Positions 2,347 to 40,097 of a stretch of 40,640 nucleotides of DNA are shown here, in pieces. The DNA is from Kofleriaceae bacterium (GTDB lineage Bacteria; Myxococcota_A; Polyangia; Haliangiales; Haliangiaceae): assembly GCA_036262915.1 (NCBI GenBank), contig DATAHZ010000797.1:1-40640 (forward strand). The letters run 5' to 3'. Within the stretch, counting starts at the first letter, position 1, and each line of letters opens with the position of its first letter. The notes beneath the pieces were generated by a model. It worked only from the letters and a program-made list of their open reading frames with translations, was not told the DNA's origin and ran no database searches. The translations under genes and the position numbers were made by a program.

Positions 2347-2900
2347 CGCAAGAGTCCGTAGAGCACCACGTCGTGGAGTCGTCGCGCCTTGCTGATGTGC
2401 TGGCGCTTGACGCCTTCGTTCACCATCCCGAGCTTGTCGAGCACGCGCAGCGATGCGCGGTTGCCGGCGAGGACCTGGGCGTAGATCCGTGCGAGGCCGA
2501 GCTCGCGAAACCCGAAATCCACCGCTGCTTGTGCCGCCTCGGTGGCGAAGCCATGCCCCCACGCAGGTTGGGCGAGCCAGTAGCCGAGCTCGGCGCGGTG
2601 ATCGCGGATGTAGCATCGCAGGCTCACGGTGCCGATCAGCATGTCGGGGTCGTCGGGCAACGTCACCGCGAGCGTGACCCCGCGTCCCAGGTCCCACCAC
2701 TCGATCCGGTGGCTCACCCAGCGCCGGGCGAGCGAGATCGGGTAGGGCGATGGCACCTGGATCAAGTACTGGGCGACGCGCTTATCGCCGGCGCCGGCCG
2801 CGACGGCTGGGGCGTCGGTCACGCGCAGCTCGCGTAGCACCAGCCGCTGGGTGATGAGATCGGGGGGCCTGGCAGAGAAGGGCAGGGGGCTTGGGTGCAT
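2325..2900 (-). CDS. GNAT family N-acetyltransferase (RimJ/RimL-like)
   Basis: Derived from ORF 2325..2999(-). Start chosen at ATG 2900 (MHPSPLPFSARPP...). GNAT core reads IGTVSLRCYIRDHRAELGYWLAQPAWGHGFATEAAQAAVDFGFRELGLARIYAQVLAGNRASLRVLDKLGM. Confidence 0.85.
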   Translation of the reverse strand: MHPSPLPFSARPPDLITQRLVLRELRVTDAPAVAAGAGDKRVAQYLIQVPSPYPISLARRWVSHRIEWWDLGRGVTLAVTLPDDPDMLIGTVSLRCYIRDHRAELGYWLAQPAWGHGFATEAAQAAVDFGFRELGLARIYAQVLAGNRASLRVLDKLGMVNEGVKRQHISKARRLHDVVLYGLLRHEWLRR

Positions 2901-2978
2901 CACGGGGCCAATAAACTCGTAGCGATCACGAGGAAAGTCGCATTGTACGAGATATGTTCCTTGGCGACTGCCCAAAAG

Positions 2979-5735
2979 ATGCCCGGTCCTCGGCCCCATG
3001 CCTATGCTCTCGCCGCTGCAGCACTCGCCACGCTAGGGCGGAGTGCCGTGGCGATGGCTACCGTGCACGACGTTCATACGCATCGCTTCGAGAACGGGTT
3101 GACGCTTCACGTCGCGTCTGGCCATCCGGTGCCAGTGGCCGCGGTGCAGGCATGGGTGGGGGTGGGCTCGGCCGATGAGGTGGCGCAGGAGGCGGGCGTC
3201 GCGCACATCGTCGAGCACATGCTGTTCAAGGGCTCGGCGGGGTACGAGCTGGGCGAACTGGTGCGCGCGATCGAGCACGGCGGCGGCGAGATCAATGCGT
3301 GGACCGCGCTCGACCACACGGTCTATCACGCGGTGCTGGGCCGCGATCACCTCGACGCCGCGATCCACGCCCTTGGCGATGCGCTGGTCGAGCCACGGGT
3401 CGACCCCGAGGAGCTCGCGCGCGAACGCGAGGTGATCCTCGAAGAGATCCGGCAGGGGGGCGACGATCCGGCGCGCAGCGTTGCCCAGAGCTTGTTCGCG
3501 ACCGCGTTTGTCACGCACCCGTACCGCCGGCCGGTGATCGGGACCGCCGAGAGCGTCGCGCGGATCGGCGAGCGCGAGATCGTCGAGTTCTTTCGTCGCT
3601 ATTACGTCGCCGATAACCTGACGCTGGTGGTCGCCGGCGATGTCGATCCGGCGCGCGTGCAACGCAGCGTCGAGCGGCGGTTTCGCACCATGCCGTCCGG
3701 CCGTCCGGTCCGCCGTGCCTGGGTCGAGCCACCGCAGCACGGTCCGCGCGCGGCCTGCGCCCATCGCGATGTCAGCGAAGCGTACCTCGCGATCGGGTTT
3801 CATGTTCCGGCCATGCGGCACCCCGACGTGGCACCGCTCGACGTCGCGGCGATCTTGCTCGGCCAGAGCGAGTCGGCCAGGCTGCCGCGGGTGCTGCGCG
3901 ATCGCGATCAGCTGGTGACCTCCGCCTATGCCAATCTCCACGCGCTGCGCGACCCCGGGCTCCTGGTGCTGTCGGCCACCGCGCGGCCGGGCGACGCGCC
4001 CCGGAGCATTGCCGCGCTCATCGATCGCAGCGTATCGCTGTGCGAGGAGCTATCGTCCGGAGAGCTCGAGAAGGCGCGGATTTCCGTCGAGAGCGCGTTC
4101 GTTCGCCAGCTCGAGACCGCGCAGGGCCGCGCGCGCTCGCTCGGCTGGCACGCGACGGTCGCCGGTGATCCGCAGTTCGGTCACGTTTACCTCGATCGGA
4201 TCCGCGCGGTCCGCCGGCACGATATCGCGCACGTGATGCGGCGCTACCTGCGACCTGACAACACCAGCGTCGCGGCGATCTTGCCGGTCGCCGCGCGACC
4301 CACGCCGCGGCGCACCGCGTGGGCCAAGCAGGCGGAGGCCCGGGTTCGCCAGGCGCTCGCCCCCACCAGCCAGCCGGCGGCCCCGATCGAGAAGCGGGTC
4401 GTCCTGGCGAGCGGGCTCGTGCTGCTCGTGCGGCGTGATCCGTCGGTGCCGATCGTCGCGATCCGCGCGGTGTGGCGTGGCGGCCAGCGGATCGAGGACG
4501 CCGATCATGCCGGAGCGTCGAGCCTACTCGCCCGCATGCTGACCCGCGGGTGCAAGGCGCGCGATGCCCAGGCGGTCGCCGACCAGATCGATCGGCTGGG
4601 TGGGTCGCTTGCCGGGGTCACGGGCCGGAACAGCTTCGGCGTCGCCGCCGAATGGCTCGCTTCGACATGGCAGGCCGGCTTTGCGCTGCTGGCCGATTGT
4701 ATCCTCGAGCCTACCCTGCCGAGCGCCGAGCTCGTACGCGAGCGCCGGCTCTTGCTCGACGATCAGCTGGCGCAGAGCGGAAGCCCGGGCCAGGTGGCCT
4801 TCCGGCTGTTCAGCGAGGCGCTCTACGGGGCGCACCCTTATGCGCGCGACGTGCTCGGCACCGCCGATGCGGTCGGCAGGCTGTCGCGCGCCGAGCTAGC
4901 CGCGTTCTATCGCGCGCGCTATCCGGCGTCGGCGATGACCCTCGCGATCGTCGGGGATGTCGAGCTCGACGAGGTGATCGACCTGGTCTCACAGCGGTTC
5001 GGTGGCGTGGTTCGCCCGGACGCGCCCCCCGGCGAGCCGGTGATCGCGGCGATCCCGCTGGGGGAACGGAGCGAGCAAGCCCGCGAGGTCTACCGGTATC
5101 TCGATCGCACACAGGCGCACCTCGTGATCGGGTTTCCGGGCGCGACGGTCGATGCCGCCGATCGGTTCGCGCTCGAGGTGCTCGTCGCGATCCTCGGCGG
5201 TCAGAGCGGCCGGTTGTTCGCCGAGCTCAGGGATCGCCGGGCGCTGGTCTACCGGGTCTCCGCGCACTCGGTCGAGGGCATCGATCCTGGGTTTGTGGCG
5301 ATCTACCTGTCCTGCGCGCCCGAGAAGCTCGCGGCCGCCGTCGCCGGCGTGCGAGACGAGCTCGCGCGGCTCAGGCGCGAGGGGGTCACCGCCGCCGAGG
5401 TCGAGCGCGCGCAGCGCTACCTGATCGGCAGCCACCAGATCGCGATGCAGCGCCGCGCGGCGGTCGCCAATGCGATGGCCTACCACGAGGCCTATGGGCT
5501 CGGCTGGCAGCGCTGGACCGGCTACGACGCCGCGATCCGCGCGGTGGCGCCGGCCGAGGTCGCCGCCGCGGCGGCCACGTACCTGCGTGAAGATCGTGCG
5601 ATCACGGCGACGGTTTTGCCGCCCGCCGCGACCCCGGCCGCGACCAAGCGATCGAAGCTACCGGGCCCGACCCGGACGAATCGATTCCGGCCGCCCGCGA
5701 GCCACCCACCTCCCCGACCGCGCGGTACTGTGTGA
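2979..5735 (+). CDS. Fused double-unit M16 (pitrilysin/insulinase) family zinc peptidase
   Basis: Inverted zinc motif HxxEH is present (HIVEHMLFKGS), followed by REREVILEEIR. A second M16-like half starts around residue 480. ATG 2979 gives a signal-peptide-like MPGPRPHAYALAAAALATLGRSAVA/MA. ATG 3054 is an alternative start. The 2895 start in the ORF track lies in lower-GC, promoter-like DNA. Confidence 0.85.
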   Translation: MPGPRPHAYALAAAALATLGRSAVAMATVHDVHTHRFENGLTLHVASGHPVPVAAVQAWVGVGSADEVAQEAGVAHIVEHMLFKGSAGYELGELVRAIEHGGGEINAWTALDHTVYHAVLGRDHLDAAIHALGDALVEPRVDPEELAREREVILEEIRQGGDDPARSVAQSLFATAFVTHPYRRPVIGTAESVARIGEREIVEFFRRYYVADNLTLVVAGDVDPARVQRSVERRFRTMPSGRPVRRAWVEPPQHGPRAACAHRDVSEAYLAIGFHVPAMRHPDVAPLDVAAILLGQSESARLPRVLRDRDQLVTSAYANLHALRDPGLLVLSATARPGDAPRSIAALIDRSVSLCEELSSGELEKARISVESAFVRQLETAQGRARSLGWHATVAGDPQFGHVYLDRIRAVRRHDIAHVMRRYLRPDNTSVAAILPVAARPTPRRTAWAKQAEARVRQALAPTSQPAAPIEKRVVLASGLVLLVRRDPSVPIVAIRAVWRGGQRIEDADHAGASSLLARMLTRGCKARDAQAVADQIDRLGGSLAGVTGRNSFGVAAEWLASTWQAGFALLADCILEPTLPSAELVRERRLLLDDQLAQSGSPGQVAFRLFSEALYGAHPYARDVLGTADAVGRLSRAELAAFYRARYPASAMTLAIVGDVELDEVIDLVSQRFGGVVRPDAPPGEPVIAAIPLGERSEQAREVYRYLDRTQAHLVIGFPGATVDAADRFALEVLVAILGGQSGRLFAELRDRRALVYRVSAHSVEGIDPGFVAIYLSCAPEKLAAAVAGVRDELARLRREGVTAAEVERAQRYLIGSHQIAMQRRAAVANAMAYHEAYGLGWQRWTGYDAAIRAVAPAEVAAAAATYLREDRAITATVLPPAATPAATKRSKLPGPTRTNRFRPPASHPPPRPRGTV

Positions 5736-6400
5736 AGCGAGCGGCTATCTACACCGGACACGGTGACCTCGGGGCGAGCTTCGTCCTGATCTTTCCGTTG
5801 CTGCTCGCCTACGAGATCGGCGTGCTGTTCGCCGGCCGGATCAACGGTGCCGATCTCGTGACCCGCGCCGTGTTCGCCGCCGTGGGATCGCGCGCCGCGT
5901 ACCTGGGATTCTATGCCCTGGTCGCGGTCGGGTTTCTGCTCTGGATCCGGCACACCCGGCGGTGGGGGACGCTACGGCTCGAACTTGCTCTCCCGGTGAT
6001 CCTCGAAGCCGCGCTCTACGCGCTCACGCTGGGTGCGCTGGTTTCTCTGATCGTCGATCGGTTGCTCGGGCTTGGCCTGACTTTGCCATCGATGATCTCG
6101 GCGCTGGGTGCCGGTGTCCACGAAGAGCTCGTGTTCCGGCTCGCGCTGATCGCCGGCCTCATCGCGCTGCTCGGGTCACTCGGGGATCGGCTCGCGGCCG
6201 TGCTCGCGGTCGCCGCGTCCTCGGTCCTGTTCGCCGCGGCTCACCACCTCGGTGGGCACGGCGAGCCCTGGACGGTCCACGCGTTCGCGTTTCGCTCGGT
6301 CGCGGGGGTCGTGTTCGGCGCGATCTTCTGGTTTCGCTCGCTCGCGCACGCGGTGTACGCACACGTGCTCTACGATGTCCTGGTCGCCGCGACGGGGTGA
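5732..6400 (+). CDS. CPBP family intramembrane glutamic endopeptidase (CAAX protease / Abi-like)
   Basis: All three CPBP motifs are present: HEELVFRL (EExxxR), FAAAHH (FxxxH) and HVLYD (HxxxD/N). The protein is multi-pass and hydrophobic. The GTG start at 5732 overlaps the M16 stop (GTGA), which implies translational coupling. Confidence 0.85.
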   Translation: MKRAAIYTGHGDLGASFVLIFPLLLAYEIGVLFAGRINGADLVTRAVFAAVGSRAAYLGFYALVAVGFLLWIRHTRRWGTLRLELALPVILEAALYALTLGALVSLIVDRLLGLGLTLPSMISALGAGVHEELVFRLALIAGLIALLGSLGDRLAAVLAVAASSVLFAAAHHLGGHGEPWTVHAFAFRSVAGVVFGAIFWFRSLAHAVYAHVLYDVLVAATG

Positions 6401-6416: not shown

Positions 6417-7343
6417 TCAGGCGAGGCCGAGTGATCCCGGTCCGTCGATCTGCATGCTACCCACGAACAGCTCGAACTTGACGCGCTTGATCTGATCAGC
6501 GTTCGCCGTGGCCTGCTGGATCGAGGCCGAGAGCAAGCCGACTTCCTTCAGGTTGATGCGGAAGATCGTGCTGGCGCGATCCGGCGACAGGAATTCGAGC
6601 GAACCGCTCATCTGCGCCGAGGGATCCTTCTTCCCCGAGGTGATGTAGTCGTGGTGCCACTGGAGCAGCTTGTCGGCGTATCCCAAGGAGATCGTGCCGG
6701 TCAGGTTCGGGAACTCGATCTTGGTCGGTTCGACCAGCGGGAACCGGTCCGCCCCCGTATAGAGCTTCTTCACGCCCTGCTTGATGGTGAAGGACTCGAT
6801 CTTGTTCGTGTACTGCATGTTATCGATCTGATCGAGCGTCAGGCGAAACGCCGAGGGCATCCACATCTTCTGCTTGGGGCTATAGTCGCTCGAGAGCGGG
6901 GGGCCGGCAGCGATCTTGGTGACCACGCGCTCCGGCTGAATCTTGCACTTGAGATAGCCGCCCTCCTTGGACGCGCCATCGAGCGCCGGGAAGGTCGTCT
7001 CGGTGATCAGCGCGTCATAGAACTCGTGCTCGAACGTCTGCTTGAGGTTGAAGTCTGCATGGCTGATCTGGCCGTTCCGGCGGGCCCACTGGCGATTCCA
7101 TGACCCCTGGATCCACTCCAGGATATGCGTCGATCCGGACAGGCCGAACTCGAGGGACAAGGGCTCGACCTCGACGGTCGAGAGGTGCTTGATGCGACCG
7201 CTGTTGCCCCCGATCGGATCGTCGACGATGTTGGCTTTCGCCCATCCACCGTCGACCGACTTCAAGAATGTCGTGGTTTTGTGACCATCGATGACCAGCT
7301 CAAAATGGCCTGCCGTGTAGCTCTTGCTTTGGGTGACGGTCAT
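6417..7343 (-). CDS. Two-domain phage-tail-tube-like protein (T4 gp19 / contractile-injection-system tube family, tentative)
   Basis: N-terminus SYTAGHFELVIDGHKTTTFLKSVDGG matches the F-x-[LV]-x-[IV]-[DE]-G...F-x-x-V-x-G opening seen in tube proteins. A second, similar half begins at SAFRLTLDQIDNMQYTNKIESFTIKQG. GAGG lies 8 nt upstream of ATG 7343. GC is clearly lower than in the flanks. Confidence 0.6.
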   Translation of the reverse strand: MTVTQSKSYTAGHFELVIDGHKTTTFLKSVDGGWAKANIVDDPIGGNSGRIKHLSTVEVEPLSLEFGLSGSTHILEWIQGSWNRQWARRNGQISHADFNLKQTFEHEFYDALITETTFPALDGASKEGGYLKCKIQPERVVTKIAAGPPLSSDYSPKQKMWMPSAFRLTLDQIDNMQYTNKIESFTIKQGVKKLYTGADRFPLVEPTKIEFPNLTGTISLGYADKLLQWHHDYITSGKKDPSAQMSGSLEFLSPDRASTIFRINLKEVGLLSASIQQATANADQIKRVKFELFVGSMQIDGPGSLGLA

Positions 7344-7578
7344 GATGCGAGCCTCAGCTTAACGCAATCCCTTGTACGACGGCCGTCGCACTGGGATCCC
7401 TTGGGATGAGGCCAGAAGCCCCAGGTGGTCACGCACAGCTTTCCCCGCCGTGCGGGCTGTGATGCCTAAGCCAGAGGAACCCTTACGTATTAGGGAACAC
7501 CCCGGAGAGGCTGGCGCGCGATTCAGTGCGAACTCCTGCGTGCAGCTGTCGGCACGAGGCTTGTAGAATGAAGCCTCC

Positions 7579-9048
7579 ATGAGCGTGAAGGTACTCCTCG
7601 TCGTCCTCCTCCTGGGCATCGTGGCCTGGCCGAAGCCCGGTCATGCCGAGAAGGTCAAGACGAACCAGAGCACGAAGTTATACAGCCGAGCTGGGGAGCA
7701 GTCCCCGGTGATCTTGACGGTCAAGTCGGGTCAGTTGATGACGCTCCTGGCCCAGGATGGTCGCTGGCTCAAGGTCCGGACCGCCGGGCGTACCGGCTGG
7801 ATTCCCCGCAGCAAGGTGGACATGCCGGATGGCGAGGAGGAGATCGCACGAAACACGCGGCGCCGCCCGTTCGTTGATGGTCGTGGTACGAAGCGCGGGT
7901 TCGGCGGCGAAGGCGGACCCGAGGACCGGATCGGCGCCGACGCGGCCGGAGACGCCGGCGACGAGGGTGGTGCCGAGCCCAGGTCCCGGTCCACCAGGTC
8001 ACCCAAGGGCGATGACGACGGTGACGACCAGCCGTCCAGGGGCACCAAGGACCCTGATGGTGATGACGGCACCAAGGAAGCGTCCCGGACGATGGCACAT
8101 GTCTCCGAGAAGACGGTGATCCTCAACGATCCCAAGAAGGACAGCGACGAATCCTTCACCGCCGGGCCCAAGACGGTGCTCTATGTTGGCGAGTCGACGG
8201 GTACGTGGACGTTCGTCGAGACCGACGAAGGGGATGCCGGCTACGTGTTGACCTCCAAGCTCGACATCGAAGAGCCCCAGGGAGGCAGCGGCGGACGCAT
8301 GCGGGCGATCGATGCCCGCGGCCGGTTGGGCGTGACGCTCGTCAGGCAATCGCTCTCCACGCCGGGAGCGATGGGGGTACTGCCCGAAAATTACAGCGCC
8401 AGCAGTTCCTCGCTCACGATCGCCCTCGGCGGCTCGGTGCTCTATCCGTACCGGACGCGCTACTGGGTCGGTGGCGAGCTCACCTATGACTTCGACAAGG
8501 CGATTCCTGGAATCTCGTACATGAACCAGACGATCAGCTTCAGCTACCATGTCTTCAATCTCCGCGCGGTCGCTGGCTACGATCTCCAGAAGAAGAACGG
8601 CATGACCGTGTACGGCCGGCTCGGCCTCCACTACGACTCGTTCCAGGTGGCCGATGTCGCTAACTTCACCCAGAACACCGCGAAGCTGCCGAACCAGACC
8701 ATCACCGCCCCCACGCTCGGTGGCGCGCTGTCCATCCCGCGGCTCACCAAGGAGATCGGGCTCAAGGTGAGCCTGGACGTGATCCTGCTCGGCTCAAGCG
8801 TCGCGCAGACCAAGAACCTCGAGGACGGCACCGATCCGAGCACGAAGGCGCTGTTTCTCGGTGGCGTCTTCTCCTACCGCTGGAAGCCCAAGATGGATCT
8901 CCAGGCGACCTATGATCTCACGTACGAGTCGCTGAGCTTCTCCGGGTTGCCGCCCCCAACCTCGCAGCGCGGTCACATGGGAACCGCGATCAGGTCGGGC
9001 TCGGATCTCAACAACGCGCTGTCGGTCGGCATCGCATACGCGTTCTAG
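7579..9048 (+). CDS. Outer-membrane beta-barrel protein with two N-terminal SH3b-like domains and an acidic linker
   Basis: Signal peptide: MSVKVLLVVLLLGIVAWPKPGHA/EK. First SH3b-like domain: LYSRAGEQSPVILTVKSGQLMTLLAQDGRWLKVRTAGRTGWIPRSKV. The linker is D/G/E-rich. Second SH3-like domain: TVLYVGESTGTWTFVETDEGDAGYVLTSKL. The C-terminal 240 aa or so show alternating beta-strand patterns and end in GIAYAF (terminal Phe, an OMP signature). Confidence 0.75.
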   Translation: MSVKVLLVVLLLGIVAWPKPGHAEKVKTNQSTKLYSRAGEQSPVILTVKSGQLMTLLAQDGRWLKVRTAGRTGWIPRSKVDMPDGEEEIARNTRRRPFVDGRGTKRGFGGEGGPEDRIGADAAGDAGDEGGAEPRSRSTRSPKGDDDGDDQPSRGTKDPDGDDGTKEASRTMAHVSEKTVILNDPKKDSDESFTAGPKTVLYVGESTGTWTFVETDEGDAGYVLTSKLDIEEPQGGSGGRMRAIDARGRLGVTLVRQSLSTPGAMGVLPENYSASSSSLTIALGGSVLYPYRTRYWVGGELTYDFDKAIPGISYMNQTISFSYHVFNLRAVAGYDLQKKNGMTVYGRLGLHYDSFQVADVANFTQNTAKLPNQTITAPTLGGALSIPRLTKEIGLKVSLDVILLGSSVAQTKNLEDGTDPSTKALFLGGVFSYRWKPKMDLQATYDLTYESLSFSGLPPPTSQRGHMGTAIRSGSDLNNALSVGIAYAF

Positions 9049-9255: not shown

Positions 9256-9552
9256 CTACAGCGCCGGCGGTGGCATCACCAGGTCCGTGGCTTGCTCGCG
9301 CAGGAGCTTGAGCACGAGATCATCGACCGTATCGCCGCGTGCGAGACTCTCGCGATAGCGCGCGAGCAGATCGGTGTATTCGGTGAATGCTGCGGTGAAT
9401 TCGTCGAACGACATCTTGTGGATCAAGCGCCCGCTCCAGTTCGCGAGATCGCCGACCGCGATGTCTCCGACCTCTTGCGTGAGGCGCGAAAGGTATTCGG
9501 CGTAGCGAGCCTGGGGGTCGCCCTGGGACACGGGATGTCCGATCACGTCCAC
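9256..9552 (-). CDS. Small acidic helical hypothetical protein, third gene of the ParA-like operon
   Basis: ORF 9256..9552(-). The GTG start immediately follows the TAA of the upstream RHH gene (TAAGTG). Codon bias is coding-like. I recognise no motif ([36 protein letters not shown]...). Confidence 0.55.
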
Positions 9553-9873
9553 TTATTGCCGTGGTGTCGCCAGCTTGTCGAGGTCGATCTGTGATAACGC
9601 GAGGCGGATCAGCTGTGATTTGTTAGCCTTGGTCCAGCCGCGACGTTTGAGCTCGGCGACCTTGGCCTCGAGTTCTTCGATGTCCCGTGTATACATCGAG
9701 ATGCAGATCACCTTGTAGTGGGTCGGCTTGAGCTGGCCGTTCGCCGCTCGACGCCGGACGGCTGGGTTCGCGGCAGCGTCATCGGCTGGTGCGCGGCGAC
9801 CGTAATACTCCTGCGAAAGAATTGCATCGGCGTCGCTCAGCGGATCGTGGGCCATCAGCTTGTCTTCCTTCAT
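9553..9873 (-). CDS. Ribbon-helix-helix-like small protein (ParG/CopG-like, tentative)
   Basis: AGAGG lies about 5 nt upstream of ATG 9873. The C-terminal part [43 protein letters not shown] has the beta-strand / helix / helix pattern of RHH proteins. The N-terminal tail is disordered and basic. Confidence 0.55.
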
Positions 9874-9882
9874 GGGGGACCT

Positions 9883-10839
9883 CTAGGCGAGCGCCTGCAC
9901 ACCGGATTCGGGTTTTCGCGTGGCTTCGGCGTGTGCCGTGGTCGCGAGGACCCAGTCGCACACACGGTGGTAGTCCGCGGCGCCATGGGAGGCCGGCGCG
10001 TACTCGAAGACCGTCTTGCGGTGGCTCGGTGCCTCGGCGAGCCGCGTGTTGTGGCGGATCGGCTCGAGGCACTTGTGCTTGAAGTGCCCCTGCAGCGTCT
10101 CAAGCACTTCTCGCGCCAAGCGGGTGCGGGCGTCGTAGAACGTCGGAAGCACGGCGGACACCCGGACCGCGTGGTTAAGATGGCGCTCCACGTCCTTGAT
10201 CGTCCGCAGCACCTGCTTGACACCGACGAGTGCCAGGTAGTCGCATGTCACTGGAATGATTACTTCGTCGGTGTACGACAGTGCATTCTGATTGAGCAGG
10301 TTGAGCGACGGCCCGCAGTCGATGATCACGTAGTCGTAGCGCCGCGACACCTGCATGAGGTGGAGGCGCTTCGTCATGATCTTCGAGCGCTGATCGGGAT
10401 TTTGCCGGGCGAGCCAGATCTCGGCGGCGGCGAGCGTCCGGTCCGACGTGATCACATCGAGGTGCTGGCGGACCGGGACGCCGACCTCGGTCGGATCTGC
10501 GCCATCGACGAGCACGTGGTACAGTGACTTCTCGCCGGAGACGCCGAGCGAGACCCCGACATTGCCCTGCGCGTCGGTGTCGATCAGCAGACAATCGTGC
10601 TCGCGCTCGGCGAGGCCCGCGGCCAGGTTGACCGCGGTCGTGGTCTTGCCGGTGCCGCCTTTCTGGTTGAGGATCGCGATCCGGCGTGCCCGCTTGCCAC
10701 GGAACCCCTCGGCCCCGAGGTGGGCCTTGCGGCACTCGAGCGAGCAAAAATGCTCGCGTTCTCCGTCCGGGGTGGCCGCGATCTGGAACACGAAGGCAGG
10801 TCGGAACGTCTGCCCACACGCGCTGCACGTCTTCTCCAT
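9883..10839 (-). CDS. ParA/MinD-family P-loop ATPase with an N-terminal Cys4 zinc-finger-like extension
   Basis: Derived from ORF 9883..11040(-). Start set at ATG 10839 ([14 protein letters not shown]...[10 protein letters not shown], i.e. CxxC...CxxxC). Deviant Walker A: [18 protein letters not shown]. ParA-type regions: [10 protein letters not shown] and [12 protein letters not shown]. The protein is 318 aa. Confidence 0.85.
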
Positions 10840-10898
10840 GCCCTTATCGAAGCGGCATCGTCGGGACGGGGGCAAGTTTTCGGCGCTATAGTGATCGC

Positions 10899-12035
10899 GT
10901 GGCGGAACCGATCGCACGTCAAGCTGTCGCGACCGGCGGTGATCCAGCGGAGCTCGCGCGCATGCTCGTCGACCAGCTCCGCTCGCCCGCGCTGCGGATC
11001 GCGTTCGTGTTCGCGGATCGCCGGCTCGATCCGGCGACATTTGCTGGGATCCAGCACGCGCTCCACGCGCCGGTGGTCGGCTGCACGATGTTAGGTGGGC
11101 TCGGCCAGGGCGTACCGCCGGGCGACGCCGCCATGGCGGTTGGCCTCGGGCTCTACGGCGACTGGGTACGCGTCGGGATCGGCGTCGCGCCCGAGCTGTC
11201 GAAGGCAGCGCTGGCGCGCGGCCGCGAGGCCGTGCACAAGGCGGCCATTGCGCTCGGTACGACGGTGGATGCGCTGGACCCGGGGCGCCACGTCGCGATC
11301 ACCTTGTTCGACGGGCGCTGCAATCGAGAGGAAGCGTTCTGCGTCGGTTCGGCGGCGTCTGCACCGAAGATCCGGTTCGTGGGCGGCGGCGCTTCGAGCG
11401 ACCTCGATCAGGAGCTACCGACCTATGTCTGGGCCAATGGCGAGGTGCTGTCCGACGCAGGGGTCGTGGTCGTGCTCGACAGCGACCATCCATTTCACGC
11501 CGTGACCTCGTCGCACCTCGTGCCGACCGAGCTCAAGACCGTGGTGACGGCGGCGACCGGGCGGGTGATCGAAGAGCTCGACGGCCGGCCGGCGGCACCG
11601 CGCCTGCGCCAGCTGATCGCGAGCCTGGGCGAGGAGCTCGCTGAACCCCGGCCGTTGCACGCGTTCGCGCGGTACATCGACGGCGTTCCGTACGTGCGTT
11701 CTTTGTACAGCATTGCTGGAACTCGCTTGGTACTAGCGAGCGCGGTCGAGACCGGACATGTCTTGCGGGTGATGCGGCCAGGTGACCTCATCCGGACGAC
11801 GAAGAGTGATCTCGGACTCGCGGCCCAGCGTGTCGGAGGCACGATGGCGGCATTTCTGGCATTCTCCTGCGTGGGACGTCACTCGGAGGCAGCGCTCCGC
11901 GGGTATCAACCCGAGCTTGCGGCAGTGTATGCGTCCTATCCCACGGTCGGGTTTCAGACGCTGTGCGAGCAGTCTTGTATGTTGCTCGTCAACCACACAC
12001 TCACGGGCCTGGCGATCGGGGGGCCCAAACCATGA
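10899..12035 (+). CDS. FIST (FIST_N + FIST_C) sensory domain protein
   Basis: Frame of ORF 10686..12035. Start placed at GTG 10899 ([27 protein letters not shown]) because upstream DNA belongs to the divergent parA-like gene. Sequence features typical of FIST proteins: [10 protein letters not shown]..., [11 protein letters not shown], ...FVGGGASSD..., FLAFSCVGR. Confidence 0.7.
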
Positions 12036-13102
12036 CGACGCGCGTGACCACGGAGGACGAGCGAATCACCGAGCTGCAGGACGAGCTCGCGGCCGCGCGA
12101 CGGACGATCGATGTCCTGATCGCACGGCTCGAGCGCTCGGGGACGGCGCCGCCGCAGCAGACCGAGCTGTTCGACGCGGCGGTCCGGCTCGGCAACGTGC
12201 TGGAAGAACGCACCCGCGAGGTCGAGGATGCCCGTGCCGAGTTCCGTGCGCTGCGTGCCAACCTCGATCAGATCGTGCGCCAGAGAACCCGTGCGCTCGC
12301 CGAGTCGGAGACCCAGCTGCGCGAGAAGAACGCCGAGCTCGAGCGTCAGAGCAAGCTCAAGACGGAGTTCATCTCGATCGCCGCCCACGAACTGCGCACC
12401 CCGCTGACCAGCATCGTCGGCTACCTCGATCTGTTCTCGGAGGGCCGGTTCGGCGAGCTTCCGAAGCTGCTCGATCGCCCGATGCGATCGGTCCAGCGCA
12501 ACGCGCACCGCTTGAAGCGGCTGGTCGACGACATGCTCGACGTCTCGCGCCTCGAGGCCGGCCGGATGACGCTGCGCCGCGGACCGGTCGATCTCGGAGA
12601 GGTCGTGAGCGACGTCGTGACCGAGCTCAAGCCGCTCGCGGAAGATCGCCAGCAGCGCGTCGCGACCCGCATCGAACCGGTGGAAGCGATCGACGCCGAT
12701 CGCGACAAGCTGCACCAGATCGCCGTGAACCTCGTGTCCAACGCGATCCGCTACACACCGGAGCAGGGCGAGATCGTGATCGATGTCGACGAGGCGCCGA
12801 GCGAGCGCTACCCGGGCGGCTGGGTGCGGCTCCGCGTGCGCGACAACGGCATCGGGATCGCCAAGGAAGATCGCGAGCGGATCTTCGATCCGTTCCTCCA
12901 CGCGCAGCCGGCGAAGCACCACTCGTCGGCGGCAGGACCGGACTCCGCGGGCCTGGGCCTCTACATCGCCCGGGGCCTGATCGAGCTCCACGGTGGCCTC
13001 ATCACCGTCGACTCGCAGCCGGACGAGTTTACCGAGTTCACCGTGCTCCTGCCGTTCAAGCACCACCTACGGCGGGACGCCAACCCGTCGGATCAAGGGT
13101 AG
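12032..13102 (+). CDS. Cytoplasmic histidine kinase (coiled coil + HisKA + HATPase_c)
   Basis: ATG 12032 overlaps the FIST stop (ATGA). H-box: FISIAAHELRTPLTSIVGYLDL. N-box: LVSNAIRYTP. G-boxes: VRDNGIGI and GLGLYIARGLIELHGG. There is no TM segment. Confidence 0.9.
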   Translation: MTTRVTTEDERITELQDELAAARRTIDVLIARLERSGTAPPQQTELFDAAVRLGNVLEERTREVEDARAEFRALRANLDQIVRQRTRALAESETQLREKNAELERQSKLKTEFISIAAHELRTPLTSIVGYLDLFSEGRFGELPKLLDRPMRSVQRNAHRLKRLVDDMLDVSRLEAGRMTLRRGPVDLGEVVSDVVTELKPLAEDRQQRVATRIEPVEAIDADRDKLHQIAVNLVSNAIRYTPEQGEIVIDVDEAPSERYPGGWVRLRVRDNGIGIAKEDRERIFDPFLHAQPAKHHSSAAGPDSAGLGLYIARGLIELHGGLITVDSQPDEFTEFTVLLPFKHHLRRDANPSDQG

Positions 13103-26603: not shown

Positions 26604-27826
26604 TCGAGCGCGATGGATCGAGCGCGGGGGAGGGGCCCCGGGCCACCCTGGCGCGAGGAAATCCCGGTGGGATGACCGAGCGCGATGGATCGAGCGCGGG
26701 GGCGCTGGGACCGGGGGCGACGATCGGGGTGCTCGGCGGTGGCCAGCTCGGCCGGATGATGGCGGTCGTCGCCCGCCAGATGGGCTATCGCATCCTCGTG
26801 CTCGACCCGAGCCCACGGTGCCCGACGGCACAAGTGTCCGATGGTGTTGTCGTAGGTACGCTCGACGATGTCGAGGCGGCGAAACACCTTGCGAGCCAGG
26901 TCGACGTGATCACCCTCGACACCGAGCACGTACCGGCCGACGTGCTGGACGTGCTCGAGACGATCGCGCCGGTGCGCCCGAGCGCGCAGGTCTTGCGCAT
27001 CGTCCAGGATCGGCTGGTGCAGAAGCAGTTCCTCGATCAGCTGGGCCTACCGCAGGCGGCGTGGGCGCCGGTCGACGATGTGCACGCGGCGCTCGCGAAG
27101 GTCGGGCGACCGGCGATCCTGAAGGTGCGCCGTGCCGGCTACGACGGCAAGGGGCAGGTGCGGATCGGCCGCGACGACGACCCCGGCGTGCTGGTCGGCA
27201 AGCTGCGCGGCGAGCCGGCGGTCGCCGAGGAGGTCGTCCCGTTCGCCCGCGAGATCTCGGTGATCCTGGCACGCGGGCTGGATGGTCAGATCCAGATCTA
27301 TCCGATCGCCGAGAACGTGCACCGCCACCATATCCTGCACACGACGCGGGCTCCGGCGCCGATGCCGGAGCCCCGGCGCCGGGAGGCCGAGGCGATCGCG
27401 GTGACGGTCGCCGAAGCGCTCGGCCACGTCGGGGTGATGGCGGTCGAGCTGTTCGAGCTCGCCGATGGCCGCCTGCTGGTCAACGAGATCGCCCCGCGCA
27501 CCCACAACAGCGGCCACTACACCTATGGTGCCTGTGCAACGTCGCAGTTCGAGCAGCATATCCGGGCGATCTGTGGGGTGCCGCTCGGTGATCCACGGCT
27601 CCTGACCGGTGCGGTGATGGTGAACCTGATAGGTGATCTCTGGAGCCAGGGGCCGCCTGTCTGGCACGAGGTCCTGGCCCGACCCGAGGCGCGGCTTCAC
27701 CTGTACGGCAAGGATTTTCCGGCGCCGGGCCGCAAGATGGGGCACGTCGTCCTCCTCGATGAGGATACCGAGCGCGCGCTCGCAACGGCGGAGTCGCTGA
27801 TCGCGACGCTGTGGACGCGCTCATGA
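26600..27826 (+). CDS. purK: N5-carboxyaminoimidazole ribonucleotide synthase (ATP-grasp)
   Basis: [13 protein letters not shown]..., ATP-grasp core ([29 protein letters not shown]) and the C-terminal LHLYGK....GRKMGHV. ATG 26600 overlaps the purE stop (ATGA). An in-frame alternative ATG at 26672 follows a 31-nt duplicated segment. Confidence 0.9.
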
Positions 27827-27845
27827 TACGTTCGTGGTCTCGGGA

Positions 27846-30800
27846 ATGGCGACCTTGGTGTATTCCGATGTCGACGGCGTCGATCGGTCGTTTGCGTTAG
27901 GGGCCGAGCCGATCATGGTCGGGCGGGCCGCGGAGTGCGCGATCCGCAGCGCTGACCCCCGGGTCTCGCGCGTGCATGCGCGGTTCTTCCTCGAGCAGGG
28001 GGCGCTGTGGGTCGAGGATCTCGGTAGCGCCAACGGGATCTTCGTGGGGCCCAACAAGGTCCAGCGTGCCCCGGTGCCGACCGGCGAGATCATCCTGGTC
28101 GGTAGCCTCTTGATCCGGCTCCTGCCGGCGAGCGGGACGATGCCGCCGCCGAGCGGTCTGCACGGAACGCTGGCGTCGTGGCTCGACACCGAGCGCAAGA
28201 CCCGGGCGGCGGTGGAAGAGGAGCGCGACGCGTTCGCCCGCCGGGTCGGCGAGATCCATTACCAGCTGAAGACCGTGATGTCGGCGCGCACGATGGATCC
28301 CGACGCGCCCGAGCTCCTGCGCCAGCGCGATGAGGCCAATGCGCGGGCGGTGGCACGCGAGCGCGCGCTCGCCGATGCCCAGGACGAGCTCGCGCTGGCG
28401 GGCCACAAGATCGAAGAGCTCCGGGCCGAGCTCGCCGAGCGGGCCGACTGGCCATCCAGCGATACCCGCGAGACGGCGCCGAAGATCACCACCGAGATCG
28501 CGCGGCTCCAGGGCGAGCTCGAGGAGGTGGAGCGTGCGCGGTCGATCGCGGAGCACGCGCAGGGCGAGGCGATGCGCGAGGCCCAGGTCATGCGCGACGA
28601 GCTGGTCGCCGTCAAGAAGGCCAGCACGGCCGAGCTCGAGGCGGTTCGCGTCGAGCTCGCCAAGGCGCGCGAGTCGCGGATGGTCGCCGAGACCGATGCG
28701 GGGGTCGCGGCTGCCGAGAAGCTCGCTCTTGCCGATCGGACGATCGCGGCGCTGACCCGCGAGGTCGCCGAGCTCCGCGCGCTGCGCGACAAGGAGAAGA
28801 CCGGTGAGAAGGCCGGTCCCGATGCACGGGGGAAGGAGCTGATCGAGCGGGTCGCGGCGCTCACCGGTCGGGCCGAGAAGGCCGAGAAGGACCTCGCGTC
28901 GGCGCAGCTTCGCGCGCAAGGCAGCGAGCGCAACCTGTCGGGGGCGAACGCGGTGGCGGCGAAGGCCGAGGCGCGCGCCGCGCAGTTCGAGCAGAAGGTG
29001 AACGAGGCGGAGGATCGGATCAGGACCGCGGAGACCGCGCTTGGCAAGGCGCAGGAGCAGATCGCGGCGCTCGAGGCACGCGCCGGGGCCGGCGATGCAC
29101 CGCACAAGGCTGCGGAGGCCCGCGCGGCCAAGCTCGCGGCCGAACTCGCCGAGATGACGAGCCAGTTCGAGACCCGGCGCGACCGCCTGATCGAGCTCGA
29201 GGCCAGGGTGGCCGCCGCGCCGGCGGCGCAGTCCAGCGGCAAGGACGCCGAGGCGCGCTCGGCGGCGGCGAGCGCCGCCGTCGCCGAGCAGGTACAAAAG
29301 CTTGCCGAGGCCGAAAAGCGCATCGCGGTCTTGCAGCGCCGGCTCGACGAGGTCGCCAGGGCCGATGCGGCGATCTCGGGCGCAGCCAGGCTCCGCGATG
29401 ACGCCGCCGCCCGGGCGGCTGCCGCCGAGCAGCAGGCGCGCGACGCCGAGCGCCGAACCGAGGATGCCGAGAAGCGGGCGAGCGCCGCCGACACGATGGC
29501 CAAGGCGATGGCGAAGGATGTCGCCGAGGCGCTGCGCCGCGCCGCCGAGGCCGACAGCCGGGCCCGCGGGGTCAGCCGCGATCTCGCCGACGCGCTCCGC
29601 CGTGCGGAACAGGCCGAGGCGCAGACCAGCGCCGGCGCGGCATCGGCGCGCGAGCTCTTGGCGCGCGCAGCCACGGCCGAGGCCCGGGTCGCCGAACTCG
29701 AGCAGGAGCTCGCCGCGACCGTCGAGCGCGCCGCCACGGAGCTCAGCGCCGAGCTCGAGCTGATCCGGGAGGAGCTTGGCCAGAAGCTCGCCCAGGCGGT
29801 TCGCGAGCTCGCGGCCGAGCGCTCGACCTCGCTGGCCCTGGTCGATCGCAAGACCCAGCTCGAGCGCGAGCTCGCCGACGCGCGTGGCCAGCTGGCCGTC
29901 CTCGCACAGCGCGCCGAGGCGGCGGAGCACAAGGCGGCCGAGGCGGACGCTCAGCTCGAGGCGCTGCAAGACAAGCTCGAGGATCTCGAGAGCGGGCTCG
30001 CCGTGGCCGAGACCGTGGGCAAGGCCACGCTCGGCGAAGTCCGCGAGGCCTTGCGCGCCGAAACGGCCGCCGCCGCCGAGGCGCGCAGCGCGCGGGACAA
30101 GGCGAACGAGGTCGTCACGCAGCTGCAGGGGCGGCTCGCCGAGCTCGAGGACCGGCTGCGCGACGCCGATCGCGCGTTCGCCACTGCCGAGACCGCGCTG
30201 GGTGAGGCCCGGCAACGGATCGCCGAGCTCGAGCATGCCGCCAGCGAGCGCGCCGGGTTGTCGGAGGCCGAGCGCGCGCAGCTGGCGGACGCGCTCGCCC
30301 GGGCCGAGGACGCGGAGCGCAAGCTGTCCGCGCTGGCGGCGACGTCCGAGACCGCCGATCTGGCGATCGGTCGCGCGGGCGCCTTGCAGCGCCAGCTCGA
30401 CGAGGCACTGTCTCGCCTCGCGTGGCTCGAGCGCCAGCAAGCTGCGCTGGGACACGAGGTACGCCCGCCGTCCGAGCCGCCCGACGAGGACACGCCGGCA
30501 CGTATCGCCGCGGCCGAGGCCCGCGCGCGCGAAGCGGAAGACCGTGCGCGCGAGGCGGAGGACCGCGTGCACGACGCCCTGGCGCGGCTGGCCGACGCCG
30601 AGCACCGTGCCGAGCTTGCGGGGGCAGCGGAGGGCCAGGCGCACGACGCCCTGGCGCGGCTGGCCGACGCCCTGGCGCGGCTGGCCGACGCCGAACACCG
30701 TGCCGAGCTTGCGGGGGCAGCGGAGGGCCGGGCGCACGACGCCCTGGCGCAGCTGGCCGACGCCGAGCATCGCGCCGAGGCCGCGCGGGCGCGCGGCGAT

Positions 30801-31652
30801 GAGCTCGCGGCCGCGCTCGCCGAGCTCGAGCAGCGTGCTGCCCATGCCGAGGAGATCAGCCGCGCGAGCGCCGACGCCGAGCGCCGGATCGTGGCCGCCG
30901 AGCAGCGGGCGAGCGCCGCCGAGCAACGCGGCCAATCCGCCGATCAGCGCGCGCAGGCTGCCGAGGGCAACGCCCAGGCGCTGGTGCGGCAGATCACCGA
31001 GATGCAAGCCACGATCGTGGCGCTCGAGCGCGAGGTCGCGACCGCCGACAACGTGCGGTCGTTCGCGGCCGAGACCGAGCGCGAGATCGCGCAATTCCAG
31101 CGCGAGCTGCGCGAGACCCGCGCGAAGCTGGCGCAGATGACGCTCGAACGCGATCGGCTCGAATCCGAGGTTCGCGATGCGCGCGGCGACGGCGACATCA
31201 CGAACCCGCACGCCGCGTTCAAGACGAGCTTCGATCCCGAGGTCACCACGCAGGCCGATGCGGTGAAGTACGAGTCGTTGATCGCCAAGAGCAGCGAGCT
31301 CGAGCAGAAATTGCAGCGCCTCGAGCGAGAAGATGCCGAGCTGCGCCGCCAGCTCGCCGACGCCGAGGCCCGGCTCCGGATCGCCGCGATCGATCTCGCA
31401 GACGAGGACGACGACAAGACCCGGACCGGCAACCACCTGCCGATCGCCGAGCTCGCCGAGCACGTCACCACGCTCGAGGAGTCGATCAACTCGCTGCGCG
31501 CGAACATGCGGGCCGCCAGCGACGAGACCGCGATGATGGATCCGTCGGAGTCGGTCAGCACGATCTCCAGCGCGGTCAGCGAGGCCGCCGAGCACGTCGA
31601 GGTGGCGCGCACGGCGATCCGCGCGCTCGCGGCGTCGATCGGGATCAGCTAA
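27846..31652 (+). CDS. Giant FHA-domain protein with a coiled coil of about 1150 aa (Ala/Glu/Arg-rich)
   Basis: ATG 27846 gives MATLVYSD.... FHA signature: IMVGRAAECAIRSADPRVSRVHARFFLEQGALWVEDLGSANGIFVG. The remainder shows heptad-like A/E/R/L repeats through to the C-terminus. Confidence 0.85.
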   Translation: MATLVYSDVDGVDRSFALGAEPIMVGRAAECAIRSADPRVSRVHARFFLEQGALWVEDLGSANGIFVGPNKVQRAPVPTGEIILVGSLLIRLLPASGTMPPPSGLHGTLASWLDTERKTRAAVEEERDAFARRVGEIHYQLKTVMSARTMDPDAPELLRQRDEANARAVARERALADAQDELALAGHKIEELRAELAERADWPSSDTRETAPKITTEIARLQGELEEVERARSIAEHAQGEAMREAQVMRDELVAVKKASTAELEAVRVELAKARESRMVAETDAGVAAAEKLALADRTIAALTREVAELRALRDKEKTGEKAGPDARGKELIERVAALTGRAEKAEKDLASAQLRAQGSERNLSGANAVAAKAEARAAQFEQKVNEAEDRIRTAETALGKAQEQIAALEARAGAGDAPHKAAEARAAKLAAELAEMTSQFETRRDRLIELEARVAAAPAAQSSGKDAEARSAAASAAVAEQVQKLAEAEKRIAVLQRRLDEVARADAAISGAARLRDDAAARAAAAEQQARDAERRTEDAEKRASAADTMAKAMAKDVAEALRRAAEADSRARGVSRDLADALRRAEQAEAQTSAGAASARELLARAATAEARVAELEQELAATVERAATELSAELELIREELGQKLAQAVRELAAERSTSLALVDRKTQLERELADARGQLAVLAQRAEAAEHKAAEADAQLEALQDKLEDLESGLAVAETVGKATLGEVREALRAETAAAAEARSARDKANEVVTQLQGRLAELEDRLRDADRAFATAETALGEARQRIAELEHAASERAGLSEAERAQLADALARAEDAERKLSALAATSETADLAIGRAGALQRQLDEALSRLAWLERQQAALGHEVRPPSEPPDEDTPARIAAAEARAREAEDRAREAEDRVHDALARLADAEHRAELAGAAEGQAHDALARLADALARLADAEHRAELAGAAEGRAHDALAQLADAEHRAEAARARGDELAAALAELEQRAAHAEEISRASADAERRIVAAEQRASAAEQRGQSADQRAQAAEGNAQALVRQITEMQATIVALEREVATADNVRSFAAETEREIAQFQRELRETRAKLAQMTLERDRLESEVRDARGDGDITNPHAAFKTSFDPEVTTQADAVKYESLIAKSSELEQKLQRLEREDAELRRQLADAEARLRIAAIDLADEDDDKTRTGNHLPIAELAEHVTTLEESINSLRANMRAASDETAMMDPSESVSTISSAVSEAAEHVEVARTAIRALAASIGIS
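30570..30785 (+). repeat. In-frame tandem repeat (72-nt unit, about 2.7 copies; copy 2 carries an extra 21-nt internal duplication)
   Basis: cacgacgccctggcgcggctggccgacgccgagcaccgtgccgagcttgcgggggcagcggagggccaggcg recurs at 30570, 30642 and 30735. It encodes HDALARLADAEHRAELAGAAEGQA. ALARLAD is duplicated in copy 2. Confidence 0.85.
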
Positions 31653-40076: not shown

Positions 40077-40097
40077 GTCGTGTTACAAGGGCGCACC

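Follow-up and report, generated by a model that had tools for sequence, protein, structure and literature searches.

What is a tail-tube gene doing on a bacterial chromosome when nothing else of a tail accompanies it? This question is raised by a 40,640-nt stretch of DNA from a Kofleriaceae bacterium (contig DATAHZ010000797.1), hereafter called the window, in which positions 6417..7343 of the minus strand hold a 308-aa open reading frame (ORF) with an ATG start, here named TUBE2. Proteins with the tail-tube/Hcp fold are familiar as components of phage tails, tailocins, extracellular contractile injection systems (eCIS) and type VI secretion systems (T6SS). An earlier note, made from the letters of the window alone, had described TUBE2 as an orphan protein with two tube-like halves, which could be an exapted structural or secreted protein rather than a prophage relic. 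Our analysis suggests that TUBE2 is probably a stand-alone host gene encoding a domesticated tube protein, and not part of a tail or the remains of one.

The identification of this coding sequence as a tandem tube protein draws on the ORF itself, the PF06841 profile, an AlphaFold2 model compared by Foldseek and 827 homologues. The frame is intact, its position and length are exactly those given in the note, and all four peptides quoted there are present. The Shine-Dalgarno sequence claimed for the gene is seen as GAGG 8 nt 5' of the ATG. An in-frame stop 5 codons 5' of the same ATG leaves space neither for a longer N-terminus nor for a signal peptide. TUBE2 is monocistronic; its convergent neighbour, across a 16-bp gap, encodes a CPBP-type protease, and its divergent neighbour encodes an SH3-bearing outer-membrane barrel protein, here named SH3OMP. 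Pfam analysis agrees with the note on both neighbours.

Both halves of TUBE2 are tube domains as judged by hidden Markov model and predicted fold. The PF06841 profile (Phage_T4_gp19) matched the whole protein in two stretches with 47.6 bits (E 1.9e-12), above its gathering cutoff of 28.2. The N-terminal domain (approximately aa 9-148; 6900..7319, minus strand) reached 37.6 bits when its half was scanned alone. The C-terminal domain (approximately aa 160-303; 6435..6866, minus strand) is delimited by PF06841, by hhalign and by full-length structural alignment to tandem tubes; its half scanned alone gave 13.9 bits (E 0.049), which is below the cutoff, and spanned profile positions 5-106 of 134. 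Aligned with each other by hhalign, the two halves are in register (E 0.02, 19% identity), a weak profile-profile match that is nevertheless compatible with an old internal duplication. Of the two profiles proposed in the note as a check, PF06841 thus recognised the protein, and TIGR02241 did not, its 20.9 bits falling under the cutoff of 62.4. The NCBIfam model CIS5_fam scored 18.8 bits against a cutoff of 260, and no match of TUBE2 to CIS1_fam (cutoff 220) was listed. PHROGs returned no match, a sequence search of the PDB gave noise only, and PF17642 (Hcp/TssD) did not match even at E<=10.

The AlphaFold2 model, built from an alignment of 25 family sequences (pLDDT 78, pTM 0.77), shows two consecutive beta-sandwich-plus-helix units, the first of which carries strands between E14 and E144 and a helix at H72-82. 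When the PDB was searched with this model by Foldseek, the closest kind of full-length match was the tail tube protein pb6 of phage T5 (9iny_A, E 1.8e-10, TMq 0.61), and the major tail protein of SH-Ab15497 (8xan_A, TM 0.63/0.63), the tail tube of P74-26 (8ed0_A, TMq 0.56) and that of DT57C likewise aligned over the full length. Tandem major tail proteins from the viral predicted-structure library BFVD also matched, with TM 0.6-0.68 at 7-12% identity. Taken singly, each domain superposes at TMt 0.70-0.79 on the eCIS tubes of Algoriphagus (AlgoCIS), Anabaena, Photorhabdus (PVC), Serratia (AFP) and Streptomyces. Over eCIS and T4 tubes together, the Foldseek matches had a probability of 1.00 and TMt 0.6-0.79; T4 gp19 matched more weakly than the eCIS tubes, and so did Hcp structures (8gra, 7yw0, 6bdc). 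The tube-like character that the note had read into both halves is therefore borne out by profile and predicted structure alike, tandem tubes matching over the full length and eCIS tubes domain by domain.

Two short segments stand out in the protein. The family's most conserved stretch in the alignments is the motif FPALDGASK (aa 118-126; 6966..6992, minus strand), in which P119, L121, D122 and K126 are invariant in one family alignment; in a second family alignment the pattern PA[LC]D[AG][SA][SA]K[DET][PA] was picked automatically as the most conserved stretch. The other is the C-terminal tail DGPGSLGLA (6420..6446, minus strand), which is predicted to be flexible (pLDDT <50 at residues 306-308) and whose ...G-L-x end recurs in Haliangium proteins (SSGLV, SSGLD, ASGLA).

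Compared with known systems, TUBE2 shares the sequence superfamily of the eCIS inner tubes (Cis1/Pvc1/Afp1/Alg1; PF06841, TIGR02241), as indicated by the PF06841 match above cutoff. However, it holds two domains in 308 aa, whereas an eCIS tube is a single domain of ~145 aa, and it lies in a conserved housekeeping locus without a sheath, baseplate, spike, cap or ATPase gene nearby. The best full-length structural matches are the tandem tubes of siphophages (T5 pb6 9iny/7qg9, P74-26 8ed0, SH-Ab15497 8xan; TM 0.51-0.68), on which both domains superpose together, although the identity is only 7-12% and TUBE2 stands outside any phage context. The major tail proteins of haloarchaeal tailed viruses likewise have two tube domains per chain. 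The TUBE2 domains are thus, as far as profile and model can tell, of the contractile/eCIS tube family by sequence and akin to siphophage tandem tubes by architecture. The double-domain chain of T5 pb6 forms trimeric, pseudo-hexameric rings.

Two other relatives of the fold were considered. Hcp (TssD) shares the tube fold, but it is a single domain forming hexamers, whereas TUBE2 is a fused double domain without a PF17642 match, and no T6SS or contractile injection system (CIS) is evident in the group. Hcp does offer a precedent for scattered tube genes, as its genes can lie away from the main cluster, its rings carry small proteins, and it occurs fused to other domains. The gp27/VgrG structures also have two tube-like domains per chain in a pseudo-hexameric trimer. 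They were not among the top structural matches, however, TUBE2 has no spike or OB-fold extension, and the eCIS clusters with tandem tubes described below carry a separate VgrG-like gene.

Could TUBE2 nevertheless be what remains of a tail cluster? The note had stated that nothing else tail-related occurs within 40 kb, and this holds for the window. About 30 of its ORFs have Pfam and NCBIfam matches, all to housekeeping, regulatory or envelope families, seven ORFs have no Pfam match, and a tblastn search of the window with ten proteins of a complete eCIS cluster (L093) found TUBE2 only (33% identity, E 1.8e-52). No sheath, baseplate or spike genes, which a functional tail, eCIS or T6SS tube should have alongside or elsewhere in its genome, were found in the window or within ~10 kb at ~60 loci; specifically, sheath and baseplate homologues were absent within ~10 kb at ~60 orthologous loci, and sheath homologues within ~10 kb at 64 related loci. 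The gene's lower GC content (60.2% against 68.5% for the whole window), which the note had pointed out with exact hand counts (37/60 at 6421-6480 and 28/60 at 6781-6840, against 43/60 at 4501-4560), was considered as a sign of horizontal transfer and rejected. By codon position the GC content is 0.53/0.41/0.86 (positions 1/2/3); the third-position value (GC3) of 0.86 is mid-range for host genes (0.72-0.93), the low GC being confined to positions 1 and 2. Because GC3 is host-like, the low GC reflects amino-acid composition and not recent import, and we see no sign of foreign origin.

The conservation of the gene points the same way. A homology search with TUBE2 returned 827 proteins with an intact frame throughout, which were ~250-320 aa long among the matches listed. 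Nearly all of the 120 homologues listed are ~300-320 aa long, with 61-94% identity, and the named ones come from Kofleriaceae metagenome-assembled genomes (MAGs). In a species-level scan (one genome per GTDB species) TUBE2 was found at 59 loci, all in MAGs labelled Kofleriaceae, Haliangiales, Myxococcales or 'Deltaproteobacteria', save for one labelled Acidobacteriota, which has the same synteny and was probably mis-binned. According to tblastn with the window proteins, the conserved region comprises a response regulator (RR), a histidine kinase (HK), hyp320, a second HK, FIST, ParA, sm106, in some cases sm98, SH3OMP, TUBE2, CPBP, M16 and GNAT. The ratio of nonsynonymous to synonymous substitution rates (dN/dS) of TUBE2 was 0.06-0.45 in twelve pairs, similar to or slightly above the values for CPBP, M16 and SH3OMP. 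Synteny and purifying selection at the orthologous loci therefore mark TUBE2 as a selected host gene and not a relic. That it is a functionless, decaying remnant of a prophage tail or eCIS cluster might be suspected from a lone tail-type gene with 60% GC in 68.5% surroundings; yet no phage or eCIS debris flanks it, the upstream motif and Shine-Dalgarno sequence are conserved together with the frame, the low dN/dS and the host-like GC3, and the synteny extends over 59 species genomes and Haliangium. We consider decay extremely improbable.

One Kofleriaceae MAG (SMAG_U5747) contains a second tandem tube copy (L036:9896-10948) with 57% identity in an unrelated context. It adjoins a gene for a helix-turn-helix-cupin regulator and one for a 1247-aa protein without a Pfam match, and its PF06841 match is stronger in the C-terminal half.

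The locus can be followed beyond the MAGs. Using a profile of the nearest relatives outside the Kofleriaceae MAGs, we retrieved TUBE2 orthologues from Haliangium ochraceum (P0391) and Haliangium sp. (P0388), which share 47-48% identity with the window protein; in the NCBI taxonomy the genus itself belongs to Kofleriaceae, order Haliangiales. The contigs retrieved for the H. ochraceum protein were read assemblies of 2.6-3.8 kb, and those for P0122 and P0129, the nearest relatives outside Kofleriaceae, and for P0178 were short as well and added nothing on gene context. The gene order there is RR, HK2, hyp320-like, HK1, ParA, sm106, sm98 (minus strand), TUBE2 (plus strand), CrcB, CPBP and M16, so that sm98 is the divergent neighbour of TUBE2 and CPBP is one gene (CrcB) away. 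The SH3OMP and FIST genes are absent at the Haliangium locus. As the same locus occurs in Kofleriaceae MAGs and in Haliangium, TUBE2 is probably older than the split of these lineages, and it was apparently inherited vertically across them, as far as gene order and sequence identity can tell.

Where does such a gene come from? TUBE2 belongs to a large double-tube family, whose members it resembles along the whole of both domains and with which it has the FPALD(G/A)(A/S)SK motif in common. A phmmer search of 1.84 billion cluster representatives gave 335 clusters at E<=1e-30 and, at the looser limit of E<=1e-3, 2,264, which is a minimum for the size of the family in clusters of 50% identity; nearly all matches listed are ~300 aa long and aligned over most of their length. 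Among 2.9 million viral contigs there was a single match, and this contig proved to be a piece of an eCIS, in which DUF4255/Pvc16_N, sheath, tandem tube, 127-aa protein and second sheath follow one another. A metagenome scan, from which 80 loci were kept, showed the same linkage of sheath and tandem-tube genes in 59 of them, and in L070 as well. The complete cluster L093 (L093:7597-19663) consists of Pvc16_N, sheath, tandem tube, the 127-aa protein (p127), second sheath, Cis5-like, a 1181-aa protein, CIS_tube (PF19266), VgrG-like and gp25 genes, and further loci of this kind are L070:16-5115, L074, L085, L112, L125, L131, L133 and L144. The first sheath in these systems has 424 aa and the second ~590 aa. 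The fused tube sits between the two sheath genes, at the position of the inner tube Cis1, and a separate Cis1-type gene was not seen there. The eCIS-linked copies share 55-75% identity with one another and 31-33% with the window protein, and the FPALDGASK motif is common to eCIS-embedded and orphan members. In L136 and L144 two tandem-tube genes follow in a row. In eCIS clusters p127 always comes after the tandem tube; a relationship of p127 to sm98 or sm106 was considered and rejected (hhalign probabilities <1%).

It is rather likely, in our opinion, that TUBE2 descends from a CIS inner-tube protein, with two tube domains fused in one chain, and is now domesticated and independent of a sheath. 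The relatives embedded in eCIS clusters at the tube position would indicate this origin, if the direction from CIS tube to orphan, which we assume, is correct. A neighbour-joining (NJ) tree divides the family into two branches. The signal-less branch (55 sequences, none with a signal peptide) holds the Kofleriaceae sequences, and it was a profile of this branch that retrieved the Haliangium proteins. The window gene falls, by its sequence, in this orphan branch, whose named members to date all come from Haliangiales. In the larger branch the eCIS-linked clade stands together with orphans both with and without signals. The internal branches of the tree are very short and give no order or number of orphan events.

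The same eCIS-embedded relatives also bring up another explanation, namely that TUBE2 is a part encoded in trans, an orphan tube or adaptor that assembles inside the sheath of a CIS or T6SS encoded elsewhere in the genome. Orphan hcp genes do serve the T6SS of the same genome. Family members at the tube position are genuine eCIS genes, TUBE2 lacks a signal peptide just as all 48 eCIS-linked copies do, by NCBIfam it weakly resembles the CIS5 adaptor and TIGR02241, and other Myxococcota do have eCIS (PMC11937823; Geller et al. 2021, Suppl. Data 6). On the other hand, its identity to the eCIS-linked copies is far below that among those copies, the eCIS clusters examined have their own tandem tube, and the gene keeps its place in a housekeeping region across the whole group. 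Moreover, Haliangium has the orthologue, yet neither of the two Haliangium genomes listed by Geller et al. 2021 (Suppl. Data 6) has an eCIS, and T6SS genes have been described chiefly from the three other myxobacterial orders (PMC10196010). On this indirect evidence we regard a trans-encoded injection part as unlikely. Regarding the neighbourhoods of homologues, whose survey the note had proposed, only some relatives of 31-33% identity lie inside eCIS clusters, while the orthologues and many other members lie outside tail clusters; the condition by which the note would have been refuted, homologues confined to complete tail clusters, thus does not hold.

Some of those other members appear to be exported. 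As called by a heuristic of hydrophobicity and motifs, about one third of 149 cluster representatives (at 50% identity) carry an apparent export signal, which is Sec-like in 34, Tat-like in 10 and a lipobox in 6, whereas a hydrophobic N-terminal extension is missing from all 48 copies that lie directly downstream of a sheath gene. Clear Sec or Tat signals are often present in orphans of the metagenome scan that are 57-67% identical to the eCIS-embedded L070 copy. Orphans with Sec, Tat (RRxFL) or lipoprotein signals include P0158, P0163, P0150, P0169, P0199, P0201 and P0267, and such genes were seen at L121:10001-10930, L122:4099-4998, L127:10001-10909, L143, L146 and L148. Tube domains also occur within large proteins (P0138 with 1943 aa, P0227 with 1010 aa, P0189, P0150 and P0179), several of them with a signal peptide; their domains comprise single tubes, at least one tandem-tube module, CIS_tube, Ig-like, DUF4214, DUF4352 and DUF922 metallopeptidase-like domains. 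Judging from these domain predictions, the tube domain serves as a module in large surface or secreted proteins. The C-termini of two fusions, P0144 and P0185, were at one point taken as type III secretion needle-like, an idea that was dropped as Pfam gave no support.

Distant members may also be quite solitary. Four of them, found on long contigs, stand alone among unrelated chromosomal (housekeeping) genes, and the named sources of distant members include Gaiellaceae, Actinomycetota and Verrucomicrobiae. At L066:8571-11065 a distant orphan tube gene directly follows a DUF7059/SAM-methyltransferase gene. P0325, P0337 and P0353 were called as methyltransferase-tube fusions, which could reflect a recurrent neighbourhood or read-through in gene calling.

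A broader proposal, which we advance tentatively and hold to be somewhat less probable than its opposite, is that fused double tubes have repeatedly escaped from injection clusters and formed a free-standing class of proteins that build rings, tubes or pores without a sheath, baseplate or injection function. Equally tentative is the division of this class into a cytoplasmic Haliangiales core gene, a Sec/Tat-exported branch and a branch built into large surface proteins.

Among the 120 TUBE2 homologues listed, in contrast, the same heuristic found none with a signal peptide. The part of the note's claim that favoured exaptation over a relic is supported (by synteny, purifying selection, GC3 and the upstream motif), whereas its mention of a secreted protein is not, TUBE2 having neither a signal peptide nor space for one. 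One could still imagine that TUBE2 leaves the cell by a non-classical route (lysis, outer-membrane vesicles or another exporter) and docks to the SH3 domains of SH3OMP, for example via its ...G-L-x tail. The strictly conserved pairing with SH3OMP in Kofleriaceae MAGs and the conserved flexible tail would fit such a route, and the many relatives with Sec, Tat or lipoprotein signals, or within surface proteins bearing signal peptides, indicate that the fold works outside the cytoplasm. However, signal peptides are missing from all 120 listed homologues and all 55 sequences of the signal-less branch, Haliangium keeps the tail yet has no SH3OMP at the locus, and no export machinery is encoded near TUBE2. 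We find this route improbable.

The pairing deserves a closer look. SH3OMP (7579..9048, plus strand) is assigned by Pfam SH3_4/SH3_3 and by OMP_b-brl (E 0.0011); it consists of a signal peptide, an SH3b domain (aa 33-80), a linker that is acidic and disordered and, at the C-terminus, an outer-membrane beta-barrel whose last residue is Phe, and 46 SH3OMP orthologues have both the signal peptide and a C-terminal aromatic residue. At every Kofleriaceae MAG locus with a visible upstream side TUBE2 and SH3OMP are adjacent and divergent, the SH3OMP match being seen only at looser thresholds in L043, L055 and L062. The genes further out vary: SH3OMP has no fewer than 7 different left-hand neighbours and TUBE2 no fewer than 4 on the right, and insertions occur as well. 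CPBP is the convergent neighbour of TUBE2 at most Kofleriaceae loci. The pairing is specific to the uncultured Kofleriaceae clade.

The region between the two genes contains conserved elements on both strands. Upstream of TUBE2 (7344..7402, minus strand) an alignment of 55 non-identical upstream regions revealed a strikingly conserved block of ~60 nt with the structure GGRRGGATC, 13-14 nt, CGTAmrAGG, 4-6 nt, CGyGwTAAGCTGAGG, 8-11 nt and ATG, whose core GGAAG-N17-CGTA is kept upstream of the Haliangium orthologues. A promoter scan found no sigma-70 consensus upstream of TUBE2, and an Rfam search of the TUBE2 intergenic region found no family. We infer from its pattern that the block is an alternative-sigma promoter resembling those of the extracytoplasmic function (ECF) type (-35 GGAA, -10 CGTA), followed by a ribosome-binding site. 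Before SH3OMP, an alignment of upstream regions showed a conserved GGCACG-N4-TTGTAGAAT (7551..7569, plus strand) only ~10 nt 5' of the start codon. It resembles a -24/-12-type element of sigma-54, which would imply a nearly leaderless mRNA; in an alternative reading it may hold a TAGAAT -10 box of a near-leaderless transcript. Apart from these elements, a shared GAAATCACGT motif recurs in many intergenic regions (e.g. L015, L022, L027, L045).

A predicted host promoter in front of a tube gene, together with the wide and patchy spread of family orphans across phyla, might also suggest a defence or decoy factor that co-assembles with, and thereby poisons, incoming phage tails or foreign CIS tubes. 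However, apart from a weak P-loop match, PADLOC-DB gave no defence-system match for TUBE2 or its immediate neighbours, the gene occupies one conserved place across the group, in a stable housekeeping locus and not in a variable island, and selection on it is purifying rather than diversifying. We consider a decoy very unlikely.

Returning to the domesticated tube protein, how might it work? Three TUBE2 chains might form a pseudo-hexameric ring in the manner of T5 pb6, and the rings may stack into short tubes; FPALDGASK may mark a retained assembly interface. We put the odds that TUBE2 still forms rings or tubes at about even, by analogy with its structural relatives. Such a ring or tube would be made in the cytoplasm and act as an autonomous scaffold or an Hcp-like carrier, with no injection device. 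Since in Kofleriaceae the gene is genetically coupled to SH3OMP, the role could be related to the envelope, either through co-regulation with SH3OMP or through binding to it, and an ECF-type sigma factor would possibly switch TUBE2 on. The flexible ...G-L-x tail is a candidate docking or processing signal, and the conserved CPBP protease nearby may be a further lead. This specific combination of a scaffold or carrier with an envelope role is speculative and, to us, rather doubtful.

Several points speak against this interpretation. The oligomerisation of TUBE2 is argued by analogy, the ECF promoter is assigned by pattern, and the direction from eCIS to orphan is assumed and not shown, given the very short branches of the NJ tree. 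The absence of tail genes applies to the window and the orthologous loci, and a CIS or T6SS could be encoded elsewhere in the source genome. The coupling to SH3OMP is not universal, as SH3OMP is absent beside the Haliangium orthologues, and it may reflect only a short, rarely broken intergenic region; furthermore, a cytoplasmic TUBE2 and an outer-membrane SH3OMP have no obvious way to meet. High expression of gp19-domain genes in marine Myxococcota, as reported from metatranscriptomes, was not used as evidence, because it concerns single-domain eCIS tubes of another lineage.

If TUBE2 does still form rings or tubes, a part of a virus or injection machine would here have become a cellular structure, and a naturally sheath-free, self-contained tube module might be useful for engineering. 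If, in addition, the repeated escape of double tubes is real, these proteins would constitute a new functional class of the tube fold. In the literature that we searched, no lone, conserved chromosomal tube gene kept by a whole bacterial group is described, nor are eCIS with fused tubes or exported tube proteins; both the tandem-tube eCIS lineage and the exported tube-fold proteins are apparently undescribed, and the same appears to be true of the overall pattern of an eCIS-embedded branch beside Sec/Tat-exported and cytoplasmic orphans. Haliangium ochraceum DSM 14365, which is cultured, has a complete genome and carries the orthologue P0391, makes the question directly testable.

The remaining genes of the locus offer some further observations. 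The CPBP/Rce1-like intramembrane protease gene (5732..6400, plus strand; Pfam PF02517) and the syntenic double M16 peptidase gene (2895..5735, plus strand) lie on the convergent side of TUBE2. As no NCBIfam model matched the CPBP protein, we do not call it a myxosortase. On the other side, three minus-strand genes (9256..11040) form a module that mostly adjoins the TUBE2/SH3OMP pair and keeps its synteny between Kofleriaceae MAGs and Haliangium. They encode a ParA-like ATPase (9883-11040) whose N-terminus carries a zf-FCS zinc finger, the conserved 106-aa protein sm106 (9553-9873) and the conserved 98-aa protein sm98 (9256-9552). The trio may be a cargo-positioning module. NCBIfam provided no names for sm98, sm106 or hyp320 either, and generic matches only for ParA.

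Besides GNAT acetyltransferase, M16, CPBP, SH3 and outer-membrane barrel, and ParA-like families, the window encodes a FIST/NosP-like sensor, histidine kinases, a response regulator, an ABC transporter, PurK, SppA, FHA, TPR and GltX. The FIST ORF matches NosP, a nitric oxide sensor, below cutoff (151 bits versus 450), and a histidine kinase gene is next to it (10686-13102 for both, plus strand). The two ORFs overlap (10686-12035 and 11810-13102), and one of them has probably been given too early a start; on the opposite strand, the ParA ORF overlaps that of FIST as well. The protein encoded at 38916-40082 (minus strand) matches the myxosortase-dependent metalloprotease family MXAN_2677/2678, though below cutoff (108 bits versus 250). 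Finally, a 1283-aa protein with an N-terminal FHA domain (27801-31652, plus strand) is encoded within the most GC-rich part of the window; positions 29001-31000 have 75-79% GC and a strongly positive AT skew, and long shadow ORFs run on the strand opposite the FHA gene.

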